DNA from: Amphiscolops sp. MND2022
Taxonomy: Eukaryota
Direction of reading: 5' to 3'
Assembly (NCBI GenBank): GCA_964187785.1
Contig: OZ076409.1
Location: forward strand, 17,796,001-17,860,000
DNA: 64,000 bases
Position numbers and translations under genes: made by a program. The notes beneath the pieces were generated by a model. That model worked only from the letters and a program-made list of their open reading frames with translations. It searched no databases and had not been told where the DNA came from. Positions 5,705-63,351 of this stretch are shown here, one piece after another; the stretch's first letter is position 1, and each line of letters opens with the position of its first letter.

Positions 5705-8700
5705 CCAGTTTTCGCTTGAACCCGAGGACTCTGAAGCTGATTTGTAAGTTGACACGAGAATGACGTCATATGTTTGTTATTGCAGGGCAATCAGGCCGAA
5801 CAACCAGCAAGAAAATGACTTCTTCACAATCAATTACGAGAAAGCTGCGCCGAGCGAAGATGCAATTAGACCTTCTGGTTTGTAACTATCCTAATTACGG
5901 ACCACTTTTACCCCCGAGGGATTTATGAACTATGTATAGGAAGCAGATTGGCACTTATCGTGCAAAGAAGTACAAGGGCGAAAATCTACCTCTTGCTTGA
6001 GATTACTAAATTGCCATTGATTACTGTGAATGTTTTTTTTCATGGTTCTGCCCTTCATACAATTCTAATGAACAGTTTTTAAAACAGTTTTTAGCCGGTG
6101 CCTTCTTGCGTTCACGTCGTTTACGGGGCGAGACGATACCAAAGGTCCCCTTGGATGGATTTGTTGACATTTTCAGTTTAGAAAAAGCGGTTTAGGTTTG
6201 AAGGGTCCTTTTTTGAGTTTTTTGGTACTGTGCAATTTTTTTCGGGAGAAAAATTCCATTTCACAAATAGGCCGCCTAAAAACAAAACAAAATGTTTTTT
6301 TTTATTCTTCGAGTTCTTAACGAAAAGTCTTAGCTTCAGACGAGGAATCTCCCAGCGATCGGAGACACGCTACGCTTGGCAAGATCATGGTTAATCTTGC
6401 TAAATCATGGTTAACCATGGTACCCTTGTCAAGATCATGGCTAATCATGATACATGGAACGCTTGTCAAGATCATAGCGAGATCTTGGCAAGATCTTGGC
6501 AAGTAACCATGGTGAGACATATGAGCTGTTTTCAATTGTATAATTAATTCTTTTCAAAAAATTTCTTGTCGTCTCCAATTTCTGACTAAGCCTTTTAATT
6601 ATAACTTCGGAGATAACCTTTATTTATCGAAAAAAGTTTTTTAAACTGAAAAGTATACAACAATTCTCAATAATTTGCTGCACCTATTGACCGAGTTTGG
6701 TAACTTCAGAGCACGGCATTGTTACTACTATCATAAATTATCATACAAAGCAAACCTCGAATCAAGTTATTACATCTTGCAGGGTTACGATATTGGTATG
6801 AGAAGCAGCTTTTCTAGCTATGATTTGTTAATCTTGCTAATACCTCACCTATTGAGGTAACGTGTTGAATATACTGAAGTTCGAGAATACAATAGAAACT
6901 AGTGCAATAAAAGTAAATAAAATTAAAAAATATAGAGTTTCCAAAAAAAAACGGATTTGCTACCATGGAACCCTTGTCAAGAACATGGTTAATCTTGGCT
7001 TCCTTGCCAAGATCATGGTAAAACATGGTACGCTTGGCACGATCTTGCATAATCATGGTATTCTTCGGTGATCTCGGTAAGATCATGGTAAGATTTTGGC
7101 AAGCCTAGCTAGCGATTTACCATGGTTCTTGGCAAGTGTACCATGCCTTCAATCGCTGGGCTGTTTCATCTTTTTCTCCCCACTTTTTTGCCACTAGCTA
7201 CTAGCAACGTTGATGGAAAGCTGGAAAGTAGCCTAGAGGTTTCCATCTAGCCTAGAGGTTAAGGTGAGTTCCTCTTCATTTTGTGGGTTCGAGTCCGACA
7301 CTAAACCAAAAAAAATTATTCTTGCAAATGTAGATGAAAGGTCAAAGGGTCCCCTTTGTGTTTTTTTTGGCACTAATCGACTTCAGCTTCTTGAAACCGA
7401 AATCCCTTTTGGTTTTTAGCAAACACAAAGCGTTTTGCGAGCAAAAAAGGCTCCGGAGGAATTCGGCTCTGTTCCATCACCTCAGAAATTTTGTCGAAAA
7501 ATTTTTTTGAATTGGTTCAAAAATCTTTTTCCGAGGAAAAACTGGTTAATTTTTTTGTCCTGTGGTGCAAATTTATGCTTTTCAGCAAAAATTACTTGGG
7601 AGGGTTCCAATGTATTGAATTTTGTTTACAAAATTGTTTCCTGCAAAATGTTCAGAAGACTACAAATTAAAAATCTTTTACACTGCCAAAAACGACTTTG
7701 AAGTTAACTTATTGAATCATTTTCATAACGGTGTAATCAAAAACAAAGTTCGGTATGAAATAACATATCGTCTTGGATTTTCATTCACAATCTACCATGG
7801 CATCATGGCTTTTCATCTATGATCATCCATGAATCGTTGATATCTTTCCATGATCATGGAATGATTCTCGGCATGGCAAACCATTCAGCTCCGTTTATCC
7901 GTTTTTTATTTAAAATTGCACTACATCAATTGCACCTTTTAAAGACTTACTTCGAACTCAAACTATTCCGCTTCACAATCAATTCATTGTAACGCTCTAA
8001 GTATAAAGGTTTTGTAAATCCTTGATATTTATAACTTTACAACCGATTACATTATGATCGCAGTTGGCGAAGCCGAGTAACTTGAGTTTTCGGTTGAGTT
8101 TTCACATAGGAGTTCTCGGTTTCGATGAATGGTCGTTGCGAGAAGCATGAACAGAAATATTGGCTATTACAACGTACGATGAAATTATATAATAGTTTTT
8201 AACTTCATGAAACATCACATGTTTTTTGTTGTTTTCCAGATCCCACAACTGCAATCAACTGCCCTTGGGGTGTGACGGCAGGGGCCACCTCTGACGATTT
8301 GAACAGGTCTTTGAATAGACAGAGCTACGGGGGAGGAGGGACCGGGGCAGCCAACGAGTCGAGTGCGGAAGCTAACTTCAACAGAAAACAGAGTGAGAAC
8401 GCACACAAAGTGAACTCGGAGCTGAGCAGAATTAAGAACTTCTACGACGACAACCCTGGATTTAAAGTGGCACAGGACCACCACAAGCAGAGAAACATGG
8501 CAGAAAGGCAGGCGTTGTTATTTCAGATAGTAAATAAGACAAAAATTTAAGATGACGTTCTCGAGTTTTAGAATAAAGTTCTCTCATGAACTGGGTTAAG
8601 CAGGTACAAGGGTACAGAGTGTTACTGAAATTCATTTTTTGAGCCATCTGAAACATTTGAACACAATTTTGGCTGTTTCGAGAAAAATCAGAGAATTTAA

Positions 8701-9324
8701 ACACTGCCTAGACCTAATCACCAATTTCTTGAAAACTGCAGTTTTCAACTGTGAATGCAACTCATAATTTTATGACTTTGGTTTTAGTTTTGAATTGATT
8801 TGTAATTAAACTTCTGTTTACAAAAGGCTGGGTTTATTAATATTTTGTTCAATGCTTTTAGATATTGTACGGAAAAGATCTACAATAACTGCAAAATATT
8901 ACATGCAACTTATTTTGCAGTTCTAGATCTTTTCCGTACAATATCTAAAAGCATTGAACAAAATATTAATAAACATAGAAATAAAACAGCCTTATGTAAA
9001 CATAGAAATTCGATTACAAATCAATTCAAAACTAAAGGCAAAGTCATCAAGCTATGCGTAGCACTCACTATTTTCTAAATGTATATTTCTGCAATTGTAT
9101 AATGCTGAAATTGTAAAATTACAATTCCTGCCTGAAGGTCTAAAGGGGTGCCCTGGGGTACCATCGACCAAGTAGGCTCCTCGGACGGGGAAAATATCAA
9201 GAGGAAGGAAAGGATGCCGGCCCCCTACGCCACCGCCTTCAACGACGAGGCTGACCCGGGCAGAAGACAGATACCCGCAGGTCAGAAGCAGGAACAAATG
9301 GTCCTGTCTCAGGTCACCTTCTAG
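5705..9324 (+). CDS. 3' part of a spliced gene encoding a small hydrophilic protein of unknown function; exons ~5705-5743, 5786-5877, 8240-8507 (or -8513), 9138-9324
   Basis: Four GC-richer segments with AG acceptors and phase-compatible junctions join into one frame (QFSLEPEDSEADL/AIRPNNQQENDFF.../DPTTAINCPWG.../RSKGVPWGT...SQVTF*), stop TAG at 9322-9324. Start exon not identified. Confidence 0.75.
6351..7160. mobile_element. Non-autonomous CMC/CACTA-like element with CCCAG termini
   Basis: TIR CCCAGCGAT...ATCGCTGGG; CT on both flanks (2-bp TSD); subterminal arrays of CAAGATCATGG/CTTGGCAAG motifs. Confidence 0.6.
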
Positions 9325-10220: not shown

Positions 10221-10757
10221 AGGTCCTTGCTAGGAACTAGGATTCAAATATCGTGCAGGGCTAAGTGTGTTCATGTTTACAAAGATTTTTCCCCTTTGGA
10301 TCTGTGTGCTCTGTTTGAAGCTTTTCTCCAAACTATTTTGAAGTTTTCTGTTATCTGGAGTTAATAACTGGAATCAACCCATACGACAACAGGTTGATCA
10401 TACTCTGCCACAATAAAGAAAAGCTGATTCCAGGCTGATCATACACTGGACCATAAAGGTTTATGGTTCCAGATTGACCATACTCTGGACCATATATGGT
10501 TCAGTCTGTGATTAACCTGTTTCCATATACTATGTTCAACATGATTTCATGAAACATTACAGACTCAAATATGGTTCAGTTTATGATCCGTATGGTTCCA
10601 TGAATAGAAATTTAGCATAACGTAGTCAAAAAACCAACCAAAATGCCGATACAGTGGCAAAACTGAAAACAAGGTCGCAATCATCAATTTTTGGCAGCTT
10701 CTGCTGAATTATTCGTAGTTCTCCAAAGACTCGAAATTCCACAGCAAAGTGGGTACT

Positions 10758-11793
10758 TGTCAGAACGAGTCACGTCCGGGTTGTTAACGATGTTAAGTCC
10801 AATACATTCACTAGTAGATGATGAGATCTTCTCGGTTAATGCCATCACAATGCTCGTTAAGTCGCTAATTTGCCTATTCATTTCCATGAAACGTTGGTCG
10901 ACTGAACTCGAGTAAGGATTTTGTCTGCTGTTGATAATATCTCCACTATCAAACTCATTCATCTGGTTTCTCGACAAAACTTCCGGAAAGCTGATCTCAC
11001 TTTCGTTATCACTGTTCTGTTCCATTCTGCTGGAACTTGCTGCATAACTGTCTACGTACTGTGATCTCGTATTGACCATGCTCGGTTCTTTAGTAAGACT
11101 TTTGAGTTTTTTAGGTTTATTGGTTAAGTTGAAGGAGAAGAATTACAAGTTTGTACGTTAATGATGTAAGCAACACTACGTTGGCTGAAGGTAAATTGTA
11201 CTGATGGTATTTCAACAATTGTTATTTTCTGCACAATGCTGGTCACGCGTCTACGTCACGTGACCGTTTTAACCAATGATATTGCTCTATTGATTAGGTG
11301 TTAATTGGTGCGTCCTGCTGGTCGCAACGCAAATGGCTTTTTGTACGAAATATAGCACCAATATGTTGCCATGGTTACGTGAGTCATCTATCATCTTGGT
11401 AAACCAATTCAACTTTAAGATGATGGCGACATACCATCATTGCACGTAATTCTTCAGGTTACTGGTAAAGCTAAATATGGTGGAAGCACTTGTACACTGA
11501 GTATAAATATGATGAACGCACTTGTACGTAGAGTACAATGATTTTGTACTTTTGTACGTTAACTACACGTTGGGAAAAGAATTGCCGATGATGGGTTAAG
11601 CCCGTCATTGTTCAGTAGTAATTCATGGTTATTGAAATATCAGGCATATTGCATTTAACTGAGTTGTTTATTGTTTAGAATGTTTTTTATCAGTTTCATT
11701 GTTGTATTCTCTTTGTATCAACCACTGTCCAAACTTGATGTAGTGGTATTGACAACGTTGTCTCTCGATTTAATTCATGCTTCCGGCATGACA
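10758..11793 (-). repeat. 3' LTR (1036 bp)
   Basis: TGTCA...TGACA termini; direct repeat of 28076-29118 differing by roughly a dozen substitutions and one small indel block (counted by eye); adjacent to the PPT. Confidence 0.95.
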
Positions 11794-11805
11794 CTCCCCC
11801 TCTTC
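11794..11805 (-). promoter_or_regulatory. Polypurine tract (GAAGAGGGGGAG)
   Basis: Purine run on the minus strand directly abutting the TG of the 3' LTR. Confidence 0.9.
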
Positions 11806-12784
11806 AAAAGAAAGAATGAATTGCAGGGGTATTCGGGGGGCTGGTAGGGGAGTGGTGTGGTCAATGTAACAGCGTCGATTATGCTGAAAATGGTAGCTGT
11901 TTAACGGCGTGAAGAAACTATTCAGCAGACGTGGTGATATCAACTGCATTGGAGTTGCTCATTCGGTTCAGTGCTGCAACGACAGTGCTATTCCGTTCTG
12001 TAGTGGCAAGCGAGAAGGAATAATTGTGTTCGTGTACTCGGATATCCGCTTCGGTTGAGAGTAAATAGTCGACTGATGTGGTGATGACGGCCACGTCATC
12101 CATTCGTGCGCATTGAAGGGAGAGTATTAGTAGGTAAATTAACCGGAAATGAATGAAACGTGGAAGCGTGATCAATCATTCGGGTGATCAATGTGGTAGT
12201 TCGTGAGTAATCACGGCTTCGTGCACTAAACATATTTCCTCTTCGTCGCTGCCAAATACGAGGTTGAAGTCACTGACAGTTTAGTTTACTGTTATCGTTA
12301 GCGTCGATTGGTTGAATGTTTGTATATTGCGGTCTACCGGGTGGAAACATTGGCATTGATTAAATCAAGAGAATTTCATGTAAATTTCCTGTATTAGGGT
12401 GTTCAGCTCAACTGGGTGATTTTCTATCTGATCGTAATTAATCAGTACTTTGATTGCGAAAACTAGTTGGCGTTCATGTAAGCGGCTTTTTTCCTCTTGT
12501 TTAGGATAATCAGGGCATTGTACAGTAAAATGCAATCTTTTTGAATCGAACTGCGTTGTTCTTTGGAGGTTGTGGTGTAGTAAATTGGAACTTCGGGCCA
12601 CTCTGTCTGAGTCCCTTTGAGTTTGATATTATCTTCGGAATTAAATAACGTGGTTGATCAAGTCACGACATCCATCGGTGAAGATGTTGAGGCCTGGTAG
12701 ATCGCATTTTGTATTGCCACAGATTGAATTCTTTGTATTTTACTTTAATTTGCCGTGTGTATTGTCGTGGAAGTTGTATCTTCA

Positions 12785-15700
12785 ATGGAGGCAGCTGGAG
12801 AAGATGTATCCACTGTTGTGTTGGCTGCTGAAGGTGTTTTGGTCGATTTTGCAAACTTGAGTCATTCATCTGGAGAGCAGGGTTTACAGGCGTCAGCTGA
12901 GGAGATGCTAGCAAGAGAGTCGGAATCCGTATGTTGTCAGTTCGCTCAACGTCTAAATGCTGCCAACATAGAAACTGCTACCTCCCTGCTGGAAATTGCG
13001 TTGTCTCACGAATTTCGTAAAAGACTTCACTTTTATAATTTTCATGTGTTGTATCAGCAACGTGTGTGACTCTTCAAGGCAATTGAGTTTAACATGGTTA
13101 CTGCGCTGGTTTGAAGGCAGGCCGATGTCGTTAAGTTAAGGACTTCACGGGAACTATTGCCTTGGGTGGACGGTTTGCCAGTTTGCTCACTACTTGCGTA
13201 TCGTTATTGAGACTAGTATACTTTCTGTTACAGAAGAGCTGAATTTGGTCGACATTGTTGGCGTATTGCGCTGTATGCTCCACCCGAATGAGCCGTCATC
13301 AGATTCGTCCGCTGTCGGAACGTTTGAAGCCAGTTTGAGGGCTTACCTCGTCTCTCGCAAAGGTAAGTAATCAGTTATCGTATATTACTTGGTGGTTGTT
13401 GTGATAATCTATCAATTCCACAAGTCACGTCGTGGGGAGGTTTTTGGCTGTGAGATGCCATTAGGGGCTGAGCAGAGCATGCTATTTTGATGTAGCCTCG
13501 TCATCTGGGTTGATTTGTTTCAGGTGTTACGGTCAGTGGTTGTCTGTCCCTTAGTGACCTCAGAGCAGCGCTTTGTCAACTGGAGAAAGAATTGGGTCAG
13601 ATCGTTAAGGCTACAGTGGGGCTCGGTACTGTCGGGGCTATCGCTGTTGACGACTTTGTTGTGCGTATCAAGGCGGCACTATGTGATGTAGTTGGTACAG
13701 CGGCCATGCAAACCTCTACTGTCATGGAAGATGTGCCTGTGTTGCCAACGTCCTCCAGTCTGGCTCCACTAGTGCCTGGGTCAAGTCAGTCAGATATCTC
13801 CGTCTCTAGTCGTCAGGGATCCGTGATGCCTTCGCTCTTTGGGGACGTCCAGTCTGGTGTTCCTTCCAGTCTGCAAACTGCGTCTGCTACTAAGCCTGGT
13901 AAAAACTCATAAGATCATGTGAGGGGTTTTAGTTTACAAGCTTTCTAAGACTACGCTTATGTACTAAGAACTTTAGGTAACTACTGAAATTTTTTTTGAG
14001 TTTGCGGTTGTGTTTTAGTTCGATCACGGAACACTGAAATCCTCGTAGTTCGTGTCGGGGGTGGTCAGGACGATTGTGGGGTTCCCGCGGCACAAACTTG
14101 TTGTGGACGGGTTCGATAGATGCTTGCTGTGTCGTGTGGATCCCAGCATCGCCGGGCGTGGTCTCTCCTCGTTGTGAGACCATTGGAAGGGGGTCGAACA
14201 TACGAGGCTTGAGCAGAAGTACCGTATCATGACCCAGAAGCCATTGCTGGACAAATCGTGTCGTGCTGTCAGTGCGGAAGAAGGTCGACGTATACGTCGT
14301 GAACGCATGTCCGAGCCGCCTGTGTATCTGGAGCCGGAGTTAAGTTTGACCGTTGACGAAAGAATCGCCATAGAGGAAGCCGAGGAAGCTGAGGGACAAC
14401 GGCCTCAGTTAGCTGCTGGAAGTGTCAACTATCTGTGGTTGAGTAACTTCATCAACAGTTTCGTGAACGTGGTTTTCTTCGGTGCTGTTTTGCGGCTAGT
14501 GGACTCATGGCGGGACTGTATGGCTGCTGAAATGCGTTTCGAGTGCAGGACTTTGGCTTACCCACAATGTCAGGTAGTATTTCGTTCAGTGCGGTATATA
14601 TTTTTTTGGCAATATTTTGTTAGTTATTTGCTTTTTCATCTCAAGCTACCATATAGTAGTTGTTACTACGTAATTTTCGGTTTTTGTGTTTCCTCTTTTG
14701 TTTTGTTTTTGTTTCTGGCTCATGATGTTTACGTGTGGTGGTATTGGGTACATTTTTGTTTTGCAGAGCTTGGTGTTGTATGGACTATACCCGTACGTTG
14801 TGGAACAACTGGACTGGCTCTTAGAGAACAGTACATGTGTCGGTGTCAGTGTGTTTCGCTGTGGTTCTTGATGGCGCTGTGAATGTCACATCGTCAGTGA
14901 GCATAGTGTTGCGTCAGTTGTCATCGCCCTAGTCGTTGACAGTGCAGGATGGGAGAAGCAACTGCTCAGGAATGTCGTTCCCATTCTCGCATGTTTGAAA
15001 GGCAGGGATCAGTTGACCACTGTGGTTGTGGAAGGAGACGCCTTGGTTGGCAAAGCATTGGCCGCTACAATTGCTCCAAAAACTCCCTTCGTGACTGGAA
15101 TGGTTACTCAGACGACTGTGTTCGAAGAAATTCGCAGGCAGTTTCTAATCGAGTTCTCTGCTCTGGATCCGCTGAGTATACTGGAGTATTTTCGCATTCG
15201 CCTGATATCCGTTGTCCAAGAACGCTTCTTAGATCGATTGCCGCATTTACGAGAAGTAAGTATTTACTGTGTATAGAGAAGGCTTTTGTTTGTAACTCAC
15301 TTCCTCTTTTGTGGTGTTCTTTCTTTGAGATTGTGCTCTTTACTCTTGTCCTGTGCTTTTGTTATGTGAAAGGAGGTGTTCTAGTAGTGTTTTGTTTTGC
15401 AGTATGTACGCTATGGAGGAAGTGACGTCGCTCAGTTGGCCAAGGTGTGCACTGAAATAGTTGAATACTGGCACGATCTAGCCTTGTATTTCGGGACGCA
15501 TCGACTTAATGTGACTTCAGAGTTGCTGGTGATTACGCCTTTGGAGAAGCAGGTCTTTGACGAAGCTATGGTTCGGCCGCAGTTTGCTGTACTCGGCGTG
15601 GTGTTGGATCTGAGTTAGTCTAGGCTATTCGTATCCTACTGAGTCGTATTTGATTTTTTCTCTTTTTTTCTAGTTCTCAGTGACTCCTCGTTGTCTCGCC

Positions 15701-17163
15701 TTTTTTGTTTTGTTTTTTTTTTGTTTTTCTTTGAAATTAGGGCTGATAGCTTCGTAACTATAACTGGTTTTTGTTGGATTGATCTTTTTATAACCGTGAT
15801 TGACGTCGTTTTGTTTCAGTGGTGAAGTACTGTACTCGACTTTGTGGGCAAGGACGGGACCGTCATTCAGTCGTGGAGCGTGAACTTGCGCATTTTATTC
15901 GTGGGTTGATGCAGTTCGTGTACCCGTCGTCTGTTATTCCGGCTGCCTACGACGTGACCGCTTTGTTAAAGCCAGTGGATCTCGAATGATGTGGATGCGG
16001 ATCTTTACCGTTTACATTTCGGGCAGTACTTTCGCTTTGATATCAGTACCCAACTGCCTTATTTCTATAAATCGGTTCAAAAGTTGTTGGTTGGGCTGTG
16101 TACCGGATTGACGCGTATGTGGCAACGAGTGTGGGCTGAGTACTTCAGTTTTACTCCTTTGGACACTGATTTGATACACAGTGGTTCCGACGACCGGCGC
16201 ACCGACGCGCTTGTAGAAACCTTTGCTGTTCTGACCGATCGCGGCTTACTTGACTTGGGTTACGGAGGAGCAGTGCAGCAGGAGTATATGGAAGTAACGC
16301 AATACTTCAAGAGGCGTTGGTCGGCTTTGCAAGAAGGGGTGCCTGTTGTGGACGATGTAATTGCTATGTGGATGTCGTACCCGTATTGGGATCGAAAACA
16401 GCATTTACGGCGCGTATTGGATGTAGTATTCGGAATAGTTGTGGTGAGTCCTTACGTTGCCGATTTCGTGGACGATTCTCAGACAGCTCTGGATTCAGAT
16501 ACTTTGGTATCTAAATTGCACTTCGTGAGGAGCTGGTTCCGTTATTCATTTGCGGCACGGACGCGACGGAATCTCCAAGGGTTGCTGCGCGTTACTGACT
16601 CAAGTGACATGTTGGAATCGCGTTTATCGGATGAGGTCCTAGCAAAACCTTGGGACCAATTGCTCAAAGTTGGCTTGGATACGACATTGGCTAGCTGTGA
16701 ATCTGTTTTGTCTAACGATCAGAAATCAACTGTTGTTCCTGCGGTGGATGATTATCGTTCAAACGTGTTAGCGCAGCTCAGTGCGTTAGATAAAGAACCT
16801 GCCAGTCCTGCTCGTGGTCCCTCAAGTTCGAAAGGAAAACGCTCTGCTGAGACATCCAAAGCTAAAACGGCCTGTACGCAGTCGGCGGTGAAGCTACAGA
16901 ATCCTGTGAGTACACCTGTGCGTCGTTCTGGTGCTAAGAAAAATTCGTCGCGGGGCCAAGGCTCTTCGACTCGAATTGGCATTGGACGAAGGACCGGAGG
17001 AAAACCGCGTGGTGCTAAAACTTTGAACCTGTCTACTTGTTTTAGCAGTTCTGTGTCGCACGACGTAAAGCAGTCTGTTGGTAAAGGAAAGAGTGTGACT
17101 GTTAAGAGGAAGGCTCGACGAACTGTTCTCGAGTCTTCAGATGGTGTTTCGGATGAGTATTAA
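12785..17163 (+). pseudogene. Antisense multi-exon gene inside the retrotransposon, hAT-transposase-like, ~1150 codons; exons ~12785-13016, 13058-13172, 13234-13362, 13524-13898, 14019-14573, 14767-15255, 15403-15613, 15820-17163
   Basis: GT-AG introns with pyrimidine tracts (e.g. AAG|GTAAGT 13362, TTTCAG| 13523, GAA|GTAAGT 15255, TTGCAG| 15402); five of seven junctions are directly phase-compatible and two need a nearby frameshift. C-x2-C-x16-H-x5-H finger at 14121-14201. This copy has three in-frame TGA stops and about three frameshifts. Confidence 0.8.
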
Positions 17164-17579
17164 TCTTGACTCAATTTGTCAGTGAACTTGTTTTTTTGCA
17201 ATTTTTTGTGAACTGTGTGTATTACTTTGTTTGACCGCCTTATTTGATAATGGTTTTTTGTTTAAATGAGTGTACTATTTTCCGTAGTTAGAATGCAGAA
17301 CAATTTACATGTTGAGTACGTTAAAATACTTTTTTTCTACAAGTTGCATGTAGTTCGTTTAGCTGCATTTGATGGTTTACGTTGTTTGGCGACTAAGAAA
17401 ACTTGGTTTTTTCATGAATTTTAAATTACAAGTAGTTGTGGTTAGGTATTTGTAGTGAGACTTCATCATCGCTGATGTGTGTCTTTTGTATTGTCCAGCA
17501 ATGGGAATTGGGTTTCCCCATATCCATTGGCGTTTGATGTGTCTAGACCTTGTTCTTTCTGACGCGAGGCGAAGCCTTT

Positions 17580-20500
17580 GAATCATCAGTAAGAACAAAG
17601 ACGTCACAACTTAATTGTCAGGTAAAGGTGACGACTGCATGTAACTGTCCTTAAGGAAGAGTTTTTTCTTTTCTTTTTTTTCCTTTCAGTTCATTGGGAA
17701 AGTTGTTTGCCGTCGCAAAAACCCATACAAAACTAACACCGAATCCACTTGCTAAAGAGCAAGCTTCATCTATCTGAATGTTTGACCAACCACACAGACG
17801 CGCTTTTGATGACGCACCCACACAGCCGAACCACATCATGGTTATTCGGGGCGGAAGTGTGAAACTAGGTTCTGGTGACGTAACTTAAACGAATCGGCTA
17901 ATTCTTTTACATTCTCGTTTGTGGGCTGTTATGTTTGCAAAAGCGACGTAATTTAGTTGATTCAGAGTTGGTGGTTACGGAATTGCAAAGCAATTCCTTT
18001 GAAGGCGTGTGGTTGGAGATTTTCGTGAATTGCATAAATTAGTGGTTCACTTGCACGTGTTTTACATGTACTTAGTAAGTTCCGGTTAGGTTGATGTGGT
18101 GCATATGACTGCATTACATGTATTTACTTTCGCGCTCAGCTGTCTCGGTAGAGAGTAACAATTTACTCTGCCAGTAAAACTCGGGTCTGCAGGACAGTGA
18201 GTATCAGTCCTCACTGAATGGTGTAAAGTGAACTGAGTAATTCGATGGCATGGTTGTTACATGTGGTGATGTAGACAACATTCAGTTAAATGCATGTATT
18301 TTTTATTTATGGTAAGATTGACGTGGTATGCGTGGCAGCGTTAGGTGTTTCTTTTCGTTCATTCCGCTGGTGGAATAGAGTGAAACGTTAAATAACACGT
18401 AGCGACGCGGTGTGTGGAACTGCGTTACGGATGTCTCGTCTGTCGTTCGTTAGCCGGTTAAGGGCGGAACTATGCTACGGCCGGTAATTTTGGAGAGTGA
18501 TGACAGTGAGTGTCAGTCGTTACTTGTGGTAAAATTCAGTATCGGTGTTTCTCGTGGCTAGGCTACTTGATTTAATTTGCATGTATGTGTTACTAGACTC
18601 CCTTTTTTGGAGAGAGTGTAAAACACTCCCATTTAATTTTTGTATGTGATTTTACTCCCGTGCTGACACGAGGCGAAGCCTACGGATTGTCAGCGAGAGG
18701 AAAAAATAGATGTTATGTTTGCATGAGTTTTAGTTGGCGGGTCTGTCTTGCATGAATTTTAGCAAAGCGGGCTTTACTCGGAGTTCGTGGACTAAAAAAT
18801 CTTGATAGGTTTCCGGTTGCGGCTCGGTTCGGAGGTTGTACCGTGTTGTGTTGTTACGCGATGTTGCGTAGTTACGTTCGTTGTGAGTTGTTGCGGTATG
18901 TTCGGTAACGGATTCGTTTGTTTCTGTAGCAGATTCATTGCTGGTATCGTGATGAACGACTGAATTGTCAGGAGGTTGCTCACAAGTTTCAGGTGGGCTT
19001 TCAGGAACTGGTTGCAGCAGCGTTTGCTCATACGATTTCCGTACGTGCTCATAATAGATGACGCCATGTTCATTGTCGGTTTCTTCTTGATCGATTGTTT
19101 CTGGTGCTGGTTCTACGTACAATTGTTGGGGCATGTGGTCATTGAAGAGCGCTTGATCATCCATTACGATACATATGCCGCAACGAACTAGCAAGATCTT
19201 GCTAGTTCGATTTACAGCCAATGAAAACGCGTTATAATTCTAAATACGCGTTACGCGTTTTGCTCGTTACACTGTGTGATTTGGCGTTACGCGTAGTGAT
19301 CAAACTACAGCAAATGACTACTTTACACTCTCTACAATTACGTACTTTGACTGGTTTCCACTTCACACACGGCGACGGAAATTGATTGTTTTACACTTTA
19401 ACCTGGTACACAATTTGACTGGAATTCATTTTGGCAAAGTGTGTACGTTAGTGATTTTGATTAGGATATATGATTATGCCAGCACTCTTTACTAATTTAT
19501 AAGTTACTAATAGGTTACCTAAGTTATACATCGTTGGCACTAGAGTTGATGGGGACATATCTCAGGCACGTTTCATACTTTAAAGACGAATCATCAGTAA
19601 GAACAAAGACGTCACAACTTAATTGTCAGGTAAAGGTGACGACTGCATGTAACTGTCCTTAAGGAAGAGTTTTTTCTTTTCTTTTTTTTCCTTTCAGTTC
19701 ATTGGGAAAGTTGTTTGCCGTCGCAAAAACCCATACAAAACTAACACCGAATCCACTTGCTAAAGAGCAAGCTTCATCTATCTGAATGTTTGACCAACCA
19801 CACAGACGCGCTTTTGATGACGCACCCACACAGCCGAACCACATCATAGTTATTCGGGGCGGAAGTGTGAAACTAGGTTCTGGTGACGTAACTTAAACGA
19901 ATCGGCTAATTCTTTTACATTCTCGTTTGTGGGCTGTTATGTTTGCAAAAGCGACGTAATTTAGTTGATTCAGAGTTGGTGGTTACGGAATTGCAAAGCA
20001 ATTCCTTTGAAGGCGTGTGGTTGGAGATTTTCGTGAATTGCATAAATTAGTGGTTCACTTGCACGTGTTTTACATGTACTTAGTAAGTTCCGGTTAGGTT
20101 GATGTGGTGCATATGACTGCATTACATGTATTTACTTTCGCGCTCAGCTGTCTCGGTAGAGAGTAACAATTTACTCTGCCAGTAAAACTCGGGTCTGCAG
20201 GACAGTGAGTATCAGTCCTCACTGAATGGTGTAAAGTGAACTGAGTAATTCGATGGCATGGTTGTTACATGTGGTGATGTAGACAACATTCAGTTAAATG
20301 CATGTATTTTTTATTTATGGTAAGATTGACGTGGTATGCGTGGCAGCGTTAGGTGTTTCTTTTCGTTCATTCCGCTGGTGGAATAGAGTGAAACGTTAAA
20401 TAACACGTAGCGACGCGGTGTGTGGAACTGCGTTACGGATGTCTCGTCTGTCGTTCGTTAGCCGGTTAAGGGCGGAACTATGCTACGGCCGGTAATTTTG

Positions 20501-21596
20501 GAGAGTGATGACAGTGAGTGTCAGTCGTTACTTGTGGTAAAATTCAGTATCGGTGTTTCTCGTGGCTAGGCTACTTGATTTAATTTGCATGTATGTGTTA
20601 CTAGACTCCCTTTTTTTGGAGAGAGTGTAAAACACTCCCATTTAATTTTTGTATGTGATTTTACTCCCGTGCTGACACGAGGCGAAGCCTACGGATTGTC
20701 AGCGAGAGGAAAAAATAGATGTTATGTTTGCATGAGTTTTAGTTGGCGGGTCTGTCTTGCATGAATTTTAGCAAAGCGGGCTTTACTCGGAGTTCGTGGA
20801 CTAAAAAATCTTGATAGGTTTCCGGTTGCGGCTCGGTTCGGAGGTTGTACCGTGATGTTTTGTTACGCGATGTTGCGTAGTTACGTTCGTTGTGAGTTGT
20901 TACGGTATGTTCGGTAAAGGATTCGTTTGTTTCTGTAGCAGATTCATTGCTGGTATCGTGATGAACGACTGAATTGTCAGGAGGTTGCTCACAAGTTTCA
21001 GGTGGGCTTTCAGGAACTGGTTGCAGCAGCGTTTGCTCATACGATTTCCGTACGTGCTCATAATAGATGACTCCATGTTCATTGTCGGTTTCTTCTTGAT
21101 CGATTGTTTCTGGTGCTGGTTCTACGTACAAATGTTGGGGCATGTGGTCATTGAAGAGCGCTTGATCATCCATTACGATACATATGCCGCAACGAACTAG
21201 CAAGATCTTGCTAGTTCGATTTACAGCCAATGAAAACGCGTTATAATTCTAAATACGCGTTACGCATTTTGCTCGTTACACTGTGTGATTTGGCGTTACG
21301 CGTAGTGATCAAACTACAGCAAATGACTACTTTACACTCTCTACAATTACGTACTTTGACTGGTTTCCATTTCACACACGGCGACGGAAATTGATTGTTT
21401 TACACTTTAACCTGGTACACAATTTGACTGGAATTCATTTTGGCAAAGTGTGTACGTTAGTGATTTTGATTAGGATATATGATTATGCCAGCACTCTTTA
21501 CTAATTTATAAGTTACTAATAAGTTACCTAAGTTATACATCGTTGGCACTAGAGTTGATGGGGACATATCTCAGGCACGTTTCATACTTTAGAGTC
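17580..21596. repeat. Tandem duplication of a ~2008-bp unit (17580-19587, 19588-21596)
   Basis: Near-identical copies both starting GAATCATCAGTAAG; duplicated 62-aa and 163-aa ORFs in the ORF track. Confidence 0.97.
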
Positions 21597-24500
21597 GTTT
21601 TATTTCTATTTTATTTCTATTCGAGCACGTCGTGATATTTCTATTTGCTATTTTACTATAATTCATCAAAAATCCATCAGCTAATTTGCTGACAGCATCC
21701 TTTAGCGAATTTCATAAAGTTTATCGCATTGACTAATTAACAGCATTAAACATTGACTAATTTACGTGGTAGATAGCTCTAAGTGCTCGAAAAATGGGTT
21801 CTAGTCAAACATTGACTAGTTTACGTGGTAGATAGCTCTAAGTACTCGAAAAGTGAATTCTAGTCAAACATTGACTAATTTACGCTTTATACACGTTACG
21901 GAATTGAGCCAATTGTAGGTTGAAAATCTTGACTGGTTTCTACTTTTCTCTAATTACGCTCAATGACCAAAATCCGCAAATTCTGATTACACTGTGCATC
22001 AAAATTCACGATTAACACACTACTCTGTTTGACTAGAATACGGTTCGTTCTCGTTTTACGGAAAATACACTTTACACTTGATGATAAAGTCCACTTTTGC
22101 GGCATATGTATCGTAATGTCGACCGCATCGGGATCAGCGAACAAGCGATTTGAGTCTTCTTTAATGTCCGGTATTGGTGCGTTCGGTGTGAAAGGACGTA
22201 ATCGCACCCTATGCACGCACTGTGTTCGGAAAGTGCCGACTTTCCTGATTATGTAGTTAAAGTTTGTCAGTACTTTAATTACTTTGAAAGGACCTTCCCA
22301 TTTGAAGTCATTGAAGCAAACCATGTCGGACTGTGTTGTGAGTTTGGGATTAAGCAGGAATGTGTAGTCGTTGACCTTTATTGGTAATGCTTGGGCTTTA
22401 CGGTCGTAGTACTTTTTGTACTTGTGCTATGCCTGCAGTATGTTGTCGTTGACTTGTTGGTACTTGTCGTTCACCTGGTCGACTAATCTCGTTATGTCAG
22501 TTTCCGTGGTTTCACATTTCAAGGGGTTGTCGAATTTGAGGTCTAGTGCGTTAAACGGAACTCTGCCCTGGAAGACTTCGCTTGGAGTGCACTTGAGTGA
22601 TTGATGGTAGGTTGTGTTATGAGCCATTACCGCGAGGTTAACGTACCTGTCCCATTGGGGGGAGTCGACGGAAATGTTAATCTTCAGAATCTGTTTCAGA
22701 TTTTGGTGGGAACTCTCCACCATCCCTATGGTTTGGGCATGCTTTACAGTAGCGTGATCGGTTTTGATTCCGGCAGTTTTCATTATTTCGTTCATGAAGT
22801 TGGATGTGAAAGCCGTGCCATTGTCAGTGATAATTGTCTTCGGGACGTAGACGTGTTGGGTGAATATTTGCATGAGTGCTTTCACCAACGATTTAGTGTC
22901 TGGTTTTCGGATCGGCACAGCGAACAAATACCGCGACAAGTAGTCGCACGCCGTCAGGATGTGCGTATATTCGTTTGAGTTATGTAGTTCGTCTACCAAA
23001 TCGATTTCCAGTACGTCTTCCGGACCGTTGCAGGGGTCGTAGATTTTTTCCAGAGGAGGCGTTAGTCGTTTCGGATTAACAGGTTTTGCTTTGATGCACT
23101 CAATACAGTTACTTACGTATTTTGACACGTGTTCGCTCAGGCTTGGTATGTAATAACGCTTGCGGAGTTCTACCAACATTTTTGATGCCCCAGGGTGTCC
23201 CCGCATGGGGTCGCCATGCATTGTCCTGATTATGAGCATAGTAGTTTCTGGAGGTACTACTTTTTGTTTGAGTAGAATTCCGCCAGTGTTATCAAAGAAG
23301 TTCCTATACAACACTTTGTTGACTCTTCAAGTCTTTTTTTAATTTTTACCAGTTTTTGAAAAAAGGAACTAGTAAAGTTAACGTGGTTTGGTAGTGGTTC
23401 GTTGTTCGTTAAAATGCGAACCATTTTTTGGACGTCTTGGTTACTTAACTGATCTTGGACGATTTGTGATTCCCCTTGCGGGCATACCTGATTTACTGAG
23501 TTGGGGTGGTGACGTCTGGTAAACCTCGTCAGTATGATGGAAGGGGTGTCTTCTGCCAGAACGGGTTCAAGGTGTCGGCTGATGATCTGAATCATCTTGA
23601 GACGTTCGTCGTCATGTGACTGATGGTTGTTCGCCATTGAGTTTAGCAAAGTTCGCATCTTTGTGAAATCGTCTGCTGGACCAGTGGTTTCAGGCTGATG
23701 TGTAGTGGGTGTCGCTACATCGGATTGCTGTTGGTCCGGGTCGTAGTTTTCTTCGTCCTCGTCCTGTTTTGGGGTTTTGGCCGCAAGATCTATCTCGATG
23801 TGGTGGACTGGGATCTGGTCATTCAATTTCAAGTGAATTCTATCTTCAGGATTAATATCGAGTCGGGACAAGTAATCTGCAGCAGGGTTCTCGACTCCAG
23901 GGACGTGGGCGAGAACAAAGTCAAATTGAAGTGCTTGGTCGCAATGGTTCCACAGTTTGGGTGGGATTCATTTCGACTAGAAAAAACGGGTCAGTGATTT
24001 GTTGTCCGTCATCACGATTGTGGGTTTTTTGACTCCCCACAGTATATGAGCAAATTCGTCGAAGGCGAAGTGCATTGCGAGGAATTCGTTAGCATACATG
24101 GTCAATGACATTTGACCTTCAGTGAATCGTTGCGAGCCGAATGCTACAGGGGCGTACGTCTTCTTCTGTCCATCATTGGCTTCGGTGTAGTCTTCAATGA
24201 GGAGCACGTTCCCTGCTGCGTGTTCGCTCGCATCACACATGATGACCAGTTGCTTGTCTGGTAGTGGTAGTCGAAGAGATAGTTTTGCAGCCTGCGCCAG
24301 GTTCTGATTAACGTCGAAGATTGCGTCCCTGTGAACCTGCGTCTTTCTGTAGAAATTTGTACAGAGGTACGAGCTTTTCTGCCAACATCCGTATGTACTG
24401 TCTGTAAAATTGTACAAATCCGATGTAGCGTTGTAGTGATTTGACTGACGTTGGTGTTTTCAGGTTGTTGAGGAAATTGTCGATCTTGTCCTCAAGTGGT

Positions 24501-26229
24501 GCGATACCTTTGGTAGTGATGCTTCTACCCAAGCACTCGATTTTTGGGTGGCCAAAGGCGCAGTTGGACATCGACAGCTTTAGTCCTGCCTTCTGTATCT
24601 GCTGGAAAACTGCTTCGATGTTGATTATCATTTCGTCCACATTGTTGGCCGCGATCCCAATGTTGTCGACATATTTGGCACATTTGTCTGCTTTTACTAG
24701 TGCATCCAGATACTCGCGAATTGTGCTGTTGAACGCAGACAAAGACCTGTTCAACCCTTGCGAAAGTCGGAGGTAAGCAAAGGTTCTGCTGCCAAAATTG
24801 AATGCCAGAAGGTGTATTGACTGTTCGTCGGCCATTTGAAGGCAGTGGTAACCTTGCGAACAGTCAAGCTTGCAAAAGTACTTCTTGCCAGCCATGTGCT
24901 GGGCTGCATCGGCAATTGTCGTTACTGGATGGTTGTCTTTGTTGTAGTCGTTTTTGAGGAGGTGGTTGATCCGCCTCAAGTCGACTAATATCCGAAGTTT
25001 CCCGTTGGGTTTTCGTTGTGCAAATATTGGGGAGGAATATTTGCTGTATGCTAACGTTGTGATGATCCCGTACTCCTGCATCAGGGCGAGTTCAACCAGC
25101 AGGTCATCTTTCAGATTGGTTGGAGTAGGTAAACTCTGGGCGTACACAGGATCATCGTGTTTGGGTGTCAGCTTGATTTTGAAATCGGTGTTGATGCCGA
25201 TATCAAGACGATGTCTAGCAAATATCGTGTGGTATTTGACGAGCAGTTCTTCGATCCTCTGTTGCTCGTGCTCAGTGAGGATCGAGTTGTCCCAGCTGAA
25301 ATTTTTGAGGAACGCCTGGCGTTGTTCGTCATCACATGTCGGGTTGAGTTTTTCAGCTTCTCGGAGTTCGATGAGTTGGTCGTGGATGCGTCTTTCTATT
25401 TTATTTAGCTTGTCAGGATCGTCACATGCTTCGGGCATCGGGAACCATCGTTTATCATTTGTGGCACTGGGATCCTGGAACAATTGGTTGATCACGGCTG
25501 CTTCATCAGGGAATTTAGTGATCAACGTCAGCTGCTCGTTAGTCATTGGCTGAATGTTTTTGGCTTGGTTTGGCGTAAGTATTCGGAAGAATGCGATTAT
25601 GCTGTTCTGGGGTATCGTTATTGCGTGGTCCATGTGGTTGGTGATTTGGACGTGGGCCTGTTGGTCCTTGATTTCGGACATTGATGGAGACACTAGCAAT
25701 TCAGTCTTTCGTTCAAAGGCTGGGAACGCCTCTATTGTGCCTGTCACTGTTCCAATGTTCTTGTCTGTTGTAGCAAGCACAAAGATTTGTTGTCCGGGCG
25801 AGATGGTTGTCTTTGGGTTGTTCTGAGTTCCAACATCTGCAGTTTGAATTTCCCATTTGGCGGTTTTAGTTGGAGGGTTGTTTCTTGGAATCGCACAATG
25901 TTATTTGCAAGGTCCAGAGTAACAGAGTATTTTTTAAAGAAGGACATTCCGATGAGGATGTTTCCCATTGTTGGTAAGATCATGAATGTATCTTCGAATA
26001 TTTTCCCTCCAATGAAAAAACGAAGAAGCACCTGTTTTCTCACCAGAACGATGTTTCCGTTGGCTATTTGGACTTTGAAGTCCGGTGCTGGATATTCCTC
26101 TAACTGGGCTGCTGGGTGGGCTTGTAAGATTCGACGTAGTTCGTTCTCAGACATCGTGCTCTGGATTGCTCCAGTGTCCAGTAGCCCTTGATTTTCGTAT
26201 TCCCGGAACTGAAGAGGAACGTAGAGCAT
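20739..26229 (-). pseudogene. pol: pol polyprotein (aspartic protease, RT, RNase H, integrase), frameshifted
   Basis: LLDTGA protease; RT motifs KLDCSQGY and YVDNI (YxDD mutated); RNase H MCDAS; integrase HHCC zinc motif, EIDLV / TDNG / MVES, GPF motif and C-terminal RYNLR; several frameshifts. Confidence 0.95.
21171..22118. mobile_element. Non-autonomous CACTA/CMC-like DNA transposon inserted in the integrase tail
   Basis: Perfect 22-bp TIR CATTACGATACATATGCCGCAA; TC 2-bp TSD (21169-21170, 22119-22120); removing it restores the pol frame (DPDAV-DDQALF). Confidence 0.9.
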
Positions 26230-26728
26230 CTTGTTTCTTCTGTCTAGCTGAAGTGTAGCACTTAATGGTCTAATGTTTGTTGGCTTCGGTGGGTTCCCCG
26301 TTTGGTTTTGTCATTCAGTTCATTCGTCTTTTGTTGTGGGTTTTTGGTTCTGGCCGGGTTCACATTTTCTCGTTGTTGTGGTTTAACTGCGTTTTCTTTC
26401 GGAATGCAATCCTTCGTTGTACAATTGGGGTTGTCGTCTATGAGAGGAAGTATATGGTAGTTGTTTGGCGAGACTTTTTGTACATAGTATTTCGTCGATG
26501 GTTTAGTCTGTTTGTCAGGACGCTGCCAACATCCTGTCATTGCAGTTTCTGAGTAGTAGTGAGTATGAGTTGGTTGTTTGGTGCGCGCACTTTCTGTTTG
26601 GTTGGACTGAGGATGACGTGATATTACATGTTTTTTGAGTTCGTGTCGAACTCATCGTTGTAATCCGTGTCGTAGCAGTCTTTAGCTTCTTCTGGTTGGG
26701 TAGGCTGGCTTGTCGCTTGCGTGGCTTG

Positions 26729-28397
26729 CTAGGATGGCTGATAGTTGTTTTGCGACTGTTTGAACTCACGACGGAATTCGCGATTTTCATTGGTGGACTG
26801 CTTGTCATATGGTACATTTCGGTAAGCCGATGCACCTGGTACCCTGTCTCTGCAATCCCGTGCGGAATGTCCGATCTTGCCACAAATTTGGCATACTAGT
26901 TTGGAGTTGTATCGTGGTTTTTCGGCTTCTTGTTGTTGAGCATTGTTGTTTCCAGGTTGAGGACGTTGTTGTGATTTCTTCGTTATTCCGTTGGCTTCGT
27001 CCCGGAGGCGTTTGCAGCATTCGATCATCTTGTGGCCCAGTATGTTGCAGTATCCTCAATTTCCTTCGAATCTTCGTTTGACTTCTCTTGTGGCGTTCTT
27101 CTCGGTGTTGTTGTGGTTGGGGGCCGGCTGAGCGTTGTTTTGTTTCGGTTGGTAGTTGTAGACCTGGTTAAGTTTTTGCATGTCTGAGGTGCCAGGGAGC
27201 AATTGTGCATATTGGCAACGGCGTTGTACAAACGTCTTGATTTCTTCGACCTTGGCGTTGTGTTTGCCTGCCATGGCAAGTTCATTTTGGATCTGGATTG
27301 GCAGTTTGGCAAACAAAAATGTCTCGGCAATGTCGTTGGCTTTGTCTCCATACGCTTGTTTAGCGAGTTTCTTGTATTTAGTGAGGAAAACGGCAAACGA
27401 CTCCTTCCAGGGGTCGTACCTCATCTGGTCGAATTTATACTTCGATACCTCTCTTAGGTCCTCCTTTGCATACTCTTTGTTGAATGCTTGCAGGACGTCA
27501 TGGAGTGTCGTTTCGGTTGTGATTTTTAGGGTTTGCCAGATTTCTATGGCCTCGTCTCGGAGCAAGCTCTGAAAGTAGTTCAGTTTCTGCTCTTCTGTCA
27601 GTTTATTCGTGTGTGGGCGGAGGTGGTTCTTCAGTAGGTGTTCGAATTCATTATATTTGTCTCGGTTTCCGCGGAAGAGAGGGACTTGAGTTTGGAGGAT
27701 TTTGGGCTGTATCACTCCATCAGTCATTGTTGTCCGTAGATTGTGGATTTCGGTCATGACGTCGTCCATTTGAGGGTCATTGGTGGATGGTGCACGGTTT
27801 CTGGTCTGATTGGTTGCAGGAGTTGGAAGGGTCCTGCGTGGCTGTTGGAGGTTTGGAGTCGGGATTGAGTTCGTGGAGACTCCAAATATGGTTCAGTTTA
27901 TGATCCGTATGGTTCCATGAATAGAAATTTAGCATAACGTAGTCAAAAAACCAACCAAAATGCCGATACAGTGGCAAAACTGAAAACAAGGTCGCAATCA
28001 TCAATTTTTGGCAGCTTCTGCTGAATTATTCGTAGTTCTCCAAAGACTCGAAATTCCACAGCAAACATGGGTACTTTTCAGAACGAGTCACGTCCGGGTT
28101 GTTAACGATGTTAAGTCCGTTACATTCACTAGTAGATGATGAGATCTTCTCGGTTAATGCCATCACAATGCTCGTTAAGTCGCTAATTTGCCTATTCATT
28201 TCCATGAAACGTTGGTCGACTGAACTCGAGTAAGGATTTTGTCTGCTGTTGATAATATCTCCACTATCAAACTCATTCATCTGGTTTCTCGACAAAACTT
28301 CCGGAAAGCTGATCTCACTTTCGTTATCACTGTTCTGTTCCATTCTGCTGGAACTTGCTGCATAACTGTCTACGTACTGTGATCTCGTATTGACCAT
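26729..28397 (-). pseudogene. gag: gag (starts in the 5' LTR; capsid-like region and two CCHC knuckles), interrupted
   Basis: MVNTRSQ start at 28397; capsid-like ORF 27056-27769 stays open upstream to 27892; knuckles (C>*)RYCNILGHKMIEC and CQICGKIGHSARDC. Confidence 0.85.
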
Positions 28398-29118
28398 GCT
28401 CGGTTCTTTAGTAAGACTTTTGAGTTTTTTAAGTTTATTGGTTAAGTTGAAGGAGAAGAATTACAAGTTTGTACGTTAATGATGTAAGCAACACTACGTA
28501 GGCTGAAGGTAAATTGTACTGATGGTATTTCAACAATTGTTATTTTCTGCACAATGCTGGTCACGCGTCTACGTCACGTGACCGTTTTAACCAATGATAT
28601 TGCTCTATTGATTAGGTGTTAATTGGTGCGTCCTGCTGGTCGCAACGCAAATGGCTTTTTGTACGAAATATAGCACCAATATGTTGCCATGGTTACGTGA
28701 GTCATCTATCACCTTGGTAAACCAATTCAACTTTAAGATGATGGCGACATACCATCATTGCACGTAATTCTTCAGGTTACTGGTAAAGCTAAATATGGTG
28801 GAAGCACTTGTACACTGAGTATAAATATGATGAACGCACTTGTACGTAGAGTATAATGATTAAATGATGCTAATTTTTGTACGTTAACTACACGTTGGGA
28901 AAAGAATTGCTGATGATGGGATAAGCCCGTCATTGTTCAGTGGTAATTCATGGTTATTGAAATATCAGGCATATTGCATTTAACTGAGTTGTTTAATGTT
29001 TAGAATGTTTTTTATCAGTTTCATTGTTGTATTTTCTTTGTATCAACCACTGTCTAAACTTGATGTAGTGGTATTGACAACGTTGTCTCTCGATTTAATT
29101 CATGCTTCCGGCATGACA
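28076..29118 (-). repeat. 5' LTR (1043 bp)
   Basis: Direct repeat of 10758-11793; outer end followed by TSD GTACT; inner terminal CA mutated to AA. Confidence 0.95.
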
Positions 29119-62001: not shown

Positions 62002-63351
62002 CTGAAACAGCTTTCTATTCAAATGTAATGTTTTTAGTGGGCCATTAACCAAGAAAAGGGGACCCTCCCTCTATGTTCGCAAAAGTTGTTTTTCTGTTGA
62101 AATTTTCTAAAGGAGGACTCTTTTGTAAGATGGGAAATTGGGGCCTGTTCTGGATTTCACTAACATATCTATCTAATGGACAAAAATGCGTGCACCGGAA
62201 TCCACTGCTTTTCACTGCCAACTGAGTTGAACCAATCGCGTCAGCTTATTTCAAAAGGTGGAATCAACTGCGACGCGACAGCATTCGTCAGTGAATTACG
62301 CTGCACGATTTCCAAAACTGCGGTCCACTGAATTCCACTGCAGATATCCAAAATACCCACTTTGGCACTGTAATGGATATTATTGGATAGAAAGAAGGGA
62401 TTTTTTTTAATTACTTTTTTGAACCCTAGAAGTCTCCTAAGAAAATCAAAACAAATAAGGAGAACGATAATAAACCATATAAAATTTTATAATCGATTGC
62501 TCACTTTCTTTTATATTTTGATAAATTGTTGAAGAAATGGCGGAGATGATGTTGTTGATCAATATAGTCAATATTTGTAACGTCAAGCTAGTGGTGTACA
62601 TACTAGAGCTGGGGTAATGCCTGGGTTGCCTTGACAGGAGACCATGGTCTTACTACAACGCTACACATCAGTTTTTGTCCCAAAAAGGGTCTCCTAGGGT
62701 GACTTCTCAAATGTCAAGGAGCCTTCTCAGTTAGAGCTCCGTGGCGACATGCCGACACTCTCAAATTCCGGACAGTCCCACAAGCATGTAAAAACAAATC
62801 CGAAGGTTCCTGCGTCTTCCTACATACTTCCTTGGTCCAAAAAAACGGCAATCAATTGAAACGCACTTTATTGACGAAATATGGTATAAATAGGGACCTA
62901 GCCGGTCAAATATTGCCATATCTCTAAAGTTCTGCAATAACAAGGTAGAATAAACACAAAAATAGCATATGGAACCAAAATTCAGCGAACTTCGTATTTT
63001 GGACATAGTCTGTATAAAAGTTGTGAATCCTTCCCGGCACTTTTCGGCATTCTTCTGGGGAATTCCTTCTGACTGGAATGTTCTTCTTTGATACACTGTC
63101 ACGGGTGTCTTCTGAGCTTTTTCCGTTTTTTTTAAATTCGTCAACGCTCTATCGTTTGAGGCGTGTGTCTTTCTTTACCGTCTTCTCGACTGATTTTCAG
63201 GTATGCTGAGCATGTCATACTTCGGATTTTTGAAAGTTCGAACATGTCCACCAAATGTACGGTGGAAATGTTGCAAATGCACCCAACACATAAGTGTCCC
63301 AAAAAAATCTACTATTATTGCATTACTCTGCCAACTGTCATGACTATTAAT

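Follow-up and report, generated by a model that had tools for sequence, protein, structure and literature searches.

A split gene antisense to gag-pol, between pol and the 3' LTR of Ty3/Gypsy elements in Amphiscolops

The window analysed here is a stretch of 64,000 nt from the genome of Amphiscolops sp. MND2022 (assembly GCA_964187785.1, contig OZ076409.1, positions 17,796,001-17,860,000 of the forward strand). Its minus strand carries an 18.5 kb retrotransposon of the Ty3/Gypsy type, bounded by long terminal repeats (LTRs) that are 98.1% identical in a direct repeat comparison (15 mismatches and five gap openings over 1,236 aligned columns). As a polypurine tract (PPT) abuts the lower of the two repeats, this one can be identified as the 3' LTR. 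The Pfam matches on the minus strand run in the order gag (DUF1759), aspartyl protease, RVT_1, RT_RNaseH, Integrase_H2C2 and rve, which is that of Ty3/Gypsy elements; the last four are at or above the Pfam cut-offs, while the aspartyl protease models match only below them. The interval from pol to the 3' LTR contains, at 12785-17163 on the plus strand and hence opposite to gag-pol, long stop-free pieces in changing frames. An earlier note, made from the sequence alone, had read this segment as an antisense gene with canonical GT-AG introns lying between pol and the PPT, and the comparisons described here confirm that this split gene is real.

The 1.07 Gb genome was searched for further copies, and the resulting family alignment consists of the window copy and 11 other long copies, nine of which are full-length at 88-94% identity and two of which are 77-79% identical. 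At the junctions this alignment displays GTAAGT-like donors and pyrimidine-rich acceptors ending in AG, the pyrimidine tracts being long, and between the junctions lie blocks of lower identity with changes in length. Across six introns and 12 copies, GT is found at 69 of 72 donors and AG at 68 of 72 acceptors, such that 137 of the 144 sites are canonical. The ATG at 12785 is present in all 12 copies, with an in-frame stop codon ahead of it (TGA, 12725-12727), and the majority of exons in the majority of copies can be read without interruption in the phase expected, in agreement with the largely matching junction phases reported previously. The TAA at 17161-17163 also stands as the end of the gene. 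In place of the length of about 1150 codons originally suggested, the modal exon lengths of 232, 129, 390, 563, 489, 211 and 1349 nt together make 3,363 nt, equivalent to 1,121 codons with the stop counted.

A model with eight exons, the approximate number first put forward, is rejected. Its 78-nt exon (13058-13135) has an in-phase stop near codon 86-88 in nine of the 12 copies, and the donor of that exon, at 13136, reads GT in only five; joining 13016 directly to 13234 yields seven exons. The 41-nt intron at the lower end of the proposed range of 41-206 bp likewise fails, and introns 1 to 6 of the window copy measure 217, 161, 120, 193, 147 and 206 nt, a range of 120-217 nt.

The position and orientation of the gene are fixed across the family and its deeply diverged relatives. 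Whether other copies carry it at the same position had been proposed as a check, and it is found there in all 12 aligned copies; the flank of approximately 1 kb between the end of the LTR and the ATG is also common to all 11 other long copies. Eight further regions were fetched and searched with pieces of the window's gag-pol and with exon translations taken from natural copies. Six have the full layout, i.e. LTR, gag, protease, reverse transcriptase (RT), RNase H, integrase, a short sense open reading frame (ORF), exons 7 to 1 on the opposite strand, and LTR. Their identity to the window is 42-88% in RT and 50-91% in exon 4, and they include relatives with RT identities of 42-66%. At the level of the whole genome, a first look gave approximately 2,440 candidate matches to exon 4. 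When the coordinates of the best 150 of the exon 4 matches were compared with those of the best 131 integrase matches, 56 pairs were found in which the integrase lies on the opposite strand, 4.4-8.0 kb away on the 3' side of the gene, and one further pair in which it lies on the opposite strand 11.7 kb away on the 5' side; no pair on the same strand occurs among these best matches.

Conservation also extends to the positions of the six introns and to their GT-AG ends. Among the borders reached by alignments in ten regions, deep relatives included, 84 of the 90 scored are canonical, and the introns diverge faster than the exons in the 12-copy alignment. In the database homologs, similarity ends exactly at the borders of exon 4 and exon 5, and is followed in nearly all of them by a valine, representing the GTN of the donor.

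The relative L037 (G000:C1072:29800-32800, minus strand) has an intron 4 of 96 nt that is in frame and free of stops, so that exons 4 and 5 form a single frame of 394 codons. Several other copies carry open frames of this length around exon 4. Open frames of 390 aa at this place can be attributed to intron 4 being in frame and stop-free, as it is in L037; loss of the intron was rejected as their cause, because intron 4 is still there in this, the one copy examined. In a second, diverged relative, L029 (G000:C11:51302000-51311999), parts of exon 4 and exon 5 are repeated after exon 7, at around 8180-8900, constituting a partial internal duplication.

Codon pairs taken from tblastn alignments were used to calculate the ratio of nonsynonymous to synonymous substitution rates (dN/dS) by the Nei-Gojobori method. 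Compared with a copy of the same family, the ratio is 0.32 for the antisense gene, 0.36 for pol and 0.28 for gag, values that are as expected when neutral decay following insertion is mixed in. Against the subfamily at 77-79% identity it falls to 0.16 for the antisense gene (1,104 codons), 0.18 for pol and 0.13 for gag, and against the C678 relative to 0.08 (1,108 codons), 0.08 and 0.06, respectively. Synonymous sites are saturated in comparisons with deep relatives, in which dN is 0.25-0.30 for the antisense gene vs 0.23-0.33 for pol. Purifying selection on the antisense gene is as strong as that on pol, and this further check suggested by the earlier note, with ratios of 0.08-0.16, comes out in favour of its proposal.

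The base composition of the gene follows the element rather than the direction of coding. The plus-strand GC skew is +0.15 in the exons, +0.22 in the introns and +0.15 in pol, compared with about 0.01 in the flanks, and one strand skew is common to exons, introns, spacer and pol irrespective of coding direction, the internal part of the element being G/T-rich on the plus strand. At third codon positions, each read on its own strand, G+T accounts for 64% in the last ORF of the gene and A+C for 62% in RT. The G/T skew shared with the rest of the element, which had been remarked upon previously, is thereby upheld, and its uniformity over exons, introns and pol speaks for the gene having long been under the mutational regime of the element.

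Table 1. Positions within the window of the antisense gene and of the Ty3/Gypsy element that carries it
Feature	Position	Strand	Remarks
3' LTR	10566-11793	-	1,228 nt; direct repeat with 27883-29118
PPT GAAGAGGGGGAG (minus strand)	11794-11805	-	abuts 3' LTR, which starts TGTCATG; read directly
Conserved non-coding stretch upstream of gene	11806-12784	+	putative promoter or 5' untranslated region (UTR); possible 5'-UTR acceptor near 12722
Exon 1	12785-13016	+	entry phase open in 10 of 12 copies; donor kept in deep relatives
Intron 1	13017-13233	+	217 nt; spans the 41-nt intron and 78-nt exon proposed earlier
Exon 2	13234-13362	+	129 nt in 12 of 12 copies; stop-free in all
Exon 3	13524-13898	+	modal length 390 nt; window copy 15 nt short
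Exon 4	14019-14573	+	basic stretch, C-x2-C-x16-H-x5-H finger, acidic linker; window copy with 8-nt deletion (frameshift) and stops
Exon 5	14767-15255	+	domain with predicted RNase H-like fold; window copy with one stop, 14869-14871
Exon 6	15403-15613	+	211 nt in 12 of 12 copies
Exon 7	15820-17163	+	helical domain and basic disordered tail; window copy 5 nt short (frameshift), frame readable only from 15970
Spacer, antisense gene to pol	17164-21949	-	contains tandem duplication of about 2,008 nt, units from about 17580 and about 19588
pol: protease, RT, RNase H, integrase, C-terminal piece	21950-26310	-	Pfam; several open frames in window copy
gag	27056-27892	-	Pfam DUF1759, E 9.8e-07
5' LTR	27883-29118	-	direct repeat with 10566-11793

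The stretch between the PPT and the ATG (Table 1) is as similar to the other copies as the exons are, and is 70-79% identical to that of relatives, while in tblastx comparisons with relatives no reading frame is preferred over this 1 kb upstream of the ATG. A scan of 11794-17700 found no inverted repeats bracketing the gene, only three short internal pairs, and neither the terminal inverted repeats (TIRs) nor the 8-bp target duplication expected of a DNA transposon surround it; the absence of TIRs that the earlier note described therefore still holds.

With regard to the host element, gag-pol of the window copy is broken into at least six open pieces, and the exons of the antisense gene carry indels and stops; the two have decayed in the same manner, as had been stated. 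The sequences flanking the LTRs on the outside, GTAC and GTAA, match at three of four positions, such that the target duplication is not clean, and the inner edge of the LTR is uncertain by a few bases. The duplication in the spacer extends over approximately 17580-21600, and each of its units includes a conserved sense ORF of 169 codons (18730-19239 and 20739-21248). This ORF is present once in relatives, adjoining the C-terminus of pol, with a dN/dS of 0.19-0.30. Discounting the 2-kb tandem duplication of the window copy, the element is about 16.5 kb in length, somewhat more than the 15 kb attributed to the family at the outset.

Several further observations concern the element, its relatives and its surroundings. 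Each LTR contains an ORF of around 150 codons on the sense strand of the element (10684-11142 and 28026-28460, both on the minus strand), the latter just upstream of gag. It has 44-83% amino acid identity in relatives and a dN/dS of 0.08-0.24 where dS can be measured, and no Pfam family matches it; possible identities are a leader protein encoded by the LTR and the beginning of gag. Elsewhere in the same genome, five exon 4 matches on one strand, spaced 10.4-11.6 kb apart (G000:C1:55531848-55575605), suggest a tandem array of elements belonging to a related family. The integrase of many related elements is found inside stop-free open frames of 1,400-1,677 codons, and parts of the clade may accordingly be young. 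Outside the element, fibronectin type III matches in minus-strand open frames at 39289-39855 (E 4.4e-4) and 61282-62070 (E 3.1e-6) probably represent exons of a large host gene on that strand. Together with the genome size of 1.07 Gb and the long pyrimidine tracts of the introns, these matches give the host the look of an animal.

The protein that the gene would encode resembles no named family. Database homologs are unnamed fragments: the last ORF has 135 cluster representatives, while 114 proteins match exon 4 and 26 match exon 5. No multi-exon annotated protein is present among the 135 representatives, all of which are of 497 aa or less in the clusters inspected, and a search for longer proteins with the last ORF gave no match at E <= 0.001. 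Neither the exons nor the homologs have a match to any Pfam family at or above its cut-off, and sequence profiles of PDB entries give a best E of 0.16 for exon 7 and 0.95 for exon 5, with no match for exon 4. Exon 4 encodes a basic stretch followed by the pattern C-x2-C-x16-H-x5-H, in which C37, C40, H57 and H63, as well as two tryptophans, are nearly invariant over 41 sequences. The zf-BED model (PF02892) matches 11 of the 41 exon 4 homologs weakly, all below the cut-off (best E 0.0061), and the language-model neighbours of the exon include zf-C2H2_12, zf-BED and GTF2IRD2 (FAM200-ZBED5 RNase-like) clusters at 0.89-0.92, which are treated as leads only.

For exon 5, a model built from 26 sequences consists of three antiparallel strands, helix, strand, helix and strand, at a predicted local distance difference test (pLDDT) score of about 80, and this is predicted to be an RNase H-like arrangement. 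A Foldseek search with the model places the Hermes hAT transposase first (8sjd_B, E 5.6e-3, probability 0.98), followed by 4d1q and 2bw3; the other matches are to integrase cores and RNase H-like proteins, and none passes E 0.001. In two runs of VIA-align, actin/Hsp70-like proteins, Pelota and ribosomal proteins lead, with Z of 5-7.5, and Hermes is outside the best 50 rows, so this method (Z <= 7.5) points to a broad RNase H-like or ASKHA-type arrangement only. Among exon 5 homologs, the residue where a first catalytic aspartate would be expected varies (C, D, S, H, Y or Q); E89, which follows strand 4, hardly varies, and D or E occupies position 91. DUF7049 gives weak matches in eight of the 26 homologs (best E 2.2e-4). 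The exon 7 model has a mean pLDDT of 54, with helical residues 17-210 at 70-87 and a disordered, basic remainder; Foldseek returns no match to it at E <= 0.001, and its Atlas neighbours, HEAT or cohesin-like at 0.85-0.93, are taken as a sign of helical repeats only. The hAT dimerisation domain (PF05699) is not matched in 40 exon 7 homologs, even with E up to 10.

Taken together, these data make it very probable that the antisense gene is an integral accessory gene of a Ty3/Gypsy clade, residing between pol and the 3' LTR on the strand opposite gag-pol. The earlier note had preferred an integral gene to a chance nested insertion, and the flank shared by 11 copies, the layout of six of the eight regions and a dN/dS equal to that of pol all argue for the same conclusion. 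Introns that are antisense to the genomic RNA appear in it as reverse complements, which the spliceosome cannot remove, the same logic that underlies intron-marked retrotransposition reporters. As these introns stay unspliced in the genomic RNA, reverse transcription carries them into every new insertion. The gene would be transcribed from a promoter of its own, for which the conserved 1 kb or so between the 3' LTR and the ATG is a candidate, or from the LTR itself, and the antisense transcript would be spliced to give a reading frame of 3.4 kb. Its product may be nuclear and bind nucleic acids; in its approximately 1,120 residues, a basic stretch would be followed by a BED-like zinc finger, a domain of RNase H-like fold, a helical domain and, last, a tail that is basic and disordered. 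Such a protein would help the element to propagate itself, most likely as a regulator of its transcription or chromatin state, or as a guide for integration.

Several points weigh against this interpretation. Every one of the 12 aligned copies is damaged, the least affected having a single frameshift or two stop codons, and no AATAAA or ATTAAA is found within 1 kb past the stop (17164-18200, plus strand). Two of the eight fetched regions are without the element's pol beside the gene: one holds exons 4 to 7 only, and in the other the gene is followed by an unrelated Gypsy element (25-26% identity), although both look truncated. Furthermore, 93 of the best 150 exon 4 matches have no integrase partner among the best 131, and free-standing copies are possible; as both sets contain the best-scoring matches only, these unpaired matches say little. 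Codon pairs derived from tblastn favour conserved stretches, yet two of the comparisons cover 1,104 and 1,108 of the approximately 1,120 codons. The promoter, splicing and translation of the antisense gene are predictions from sequence, and the function of the protein is read from a motif and a fold predicted with moderate confidence.

It is highly improbable that the gene is a passenger, either a fossil nested insertion or a transduced host gene, which is copied neutrally without benefit to the element. The damage in all 12 aligned copies and the failure of the protein to fit any known family would both suit such an origin, but gag-pol is damaged likewise in the same copies. A passenger would also not be expected to have a dN/dS at the level of pol, 0.08-0.16 over about 1,100 codons with synonymous sites near or at saturation, to keep its splice sites at 84 of 90 borders in a sample that extends to relatives with 42-66% RT identity, or to have introns that diverge faster than its exons. 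That the antisense RNA matters instead of the protein, by pairing with the genomic RNA and feeding small-RNA control of the element, seems scarcely likely either. Complementarity to the 3' region of the element would indeed be expected of an antisense transcript exceeding 4 kb, and a small-RNA-type role for plant antisense ORFs (aORFs) is raised in a review (PMC7264820). However, a frame of 3,363 nt that is open across the exons, the excess of synonymous change and the conserved Cys/His finger would be left unexplained; the RNA may have a role in addition to the protein.

The interpretation of the gene as an integral accessory gene is compatible with descent from a hAT-type DNA transposase, through a single insertion in reverse orientation into an ancestral element, followed by loss of the transposon ends and by co-option. 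This ancestry is possible but doubtful. The finger has the BED pattern, with weak PF02892 matches in 11 of 41 homologs; the language-model neighbours in the zf-C2H2_12, zf-BED and GTF2IRD2 clusters tend the same way, as does the placing of Hermes at the top of the Foldseek matches for exon 5. Conversely, there is no Pfam match at a curated cut-off, Hermes stays outside the best 50 rows in both VIA-align runs, the homologs differ in the residue expected to be the first catalytic aspartate, exon 7 has neither a fold match nor, in its 40 homologs, a dimerisation domain, and the gene is without flanking inverted repeats. A fuller proposal is improbable as a whole. In it, an abundant clade of animal Gypsy elements relies on a reversed gene that has six introns and stems from a BED-finger, RNase H-like protein of a hAT-type DNA transposon; the introns disguise its mRNA, and its protein steers integration or blunts silencing of the element. 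Were it true, the introns would make the accessory mRNA look like any spliced message of the host, and so let it evade surveillance directed at intronless retroelement transcripts.

To our knowledge, little is understood of the additional genes that LTR retrotransposons carry, and for those in antisense no function has been established in any organism. The clade described here should be useful in this regard, comprising thousands of copies with a long gene of approximately 1,120 codons that has recognisable parts and intron positions conserved as deeply as pol. It offers a good system for asking what antisense genes do for an element, and whether their introns are only tolerated or are used. 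There is also a consequence for annotation, as repeat maskers hide such antisense genes, while gene finders may take them for genes of the host.

Plant and fungal Gypsy elements are already known to have antisense genes at this position. No intron-containing antisense gene of an animal Gypsy element was found in the literature searched, which covered few subscription journals. The Boty-like Gypsy elements of Botrytis reportedly carry an antisense gene, brtn, which resembles that of Amphiscolops in its reversed orientation and in its place between pol and the 3' LTR; the two are set side by side by description only. Against the fungal antisense genes as described, the Amphiscolops gene stands out by its seven exons, its C2H2/BED-type finger and its domain with a predicted RNase H-like fold. 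The hAT-derived ZBED, GTF2IRD2 and FAM200 proteins have a similar arrangement, a finger pattern and then an RNase H-like fold, to which the weak profile, language-model and Foldseek leads point. They differ in that the Amphiscolops gene has no significant sequence match to them, does not appear to conserve the catalytic residues, encodes no detected dimerisation domain and is carried by a retrotransposon.

HTLV-1 is another reverse-transcribing element that has a protein-coding gene in antisense at its 3' end. That gene is transcribed from a start in the 3' LTR and encodes HBZ, a short protein of the bZIP type. The Amphiscolops gene differs from the HBZ gene in having six introns within the coding region, and no bZIP was detected in Pfam scans of any exon; spliced forms of HBZ exist, according to PMC7264820 and PMC11963269. 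Plant Ty3/Gypsy elements of the Tat/Retand type are likewise described as having antisense ORFs in the interval from pol to the 3' LTR, examples being gene23 of maize Grande, rice RIRE2, Silene Retand and PvRetro13 (PMC7264820, PMC11963269, PMC4408406). The products of the plant aORFs carry TRP28, PMD or SMC-like domains, none of which was found in the Amphiscolops protein; TRP28 and PMD had no Pfam match for any exon or for 107 homologs, with E up to 10. Furthermore, a search of PMC7264820 and PMC11963269 for the word 'intron' gave 0 occurrences, while the Amphiscolops gene has six conserved introns and encodes about 1,120 residues. In other respects, the plant systems are much alike: the aORFs share the place and the orientation of the Amphiscolops gene, are found in all or most copies, are ancient in their lineage, and have products of unknown function that are probably DNA-binding or nuclear, and the elements themselves have a long region between pol and the 3' LTR, often with tandem repeats.

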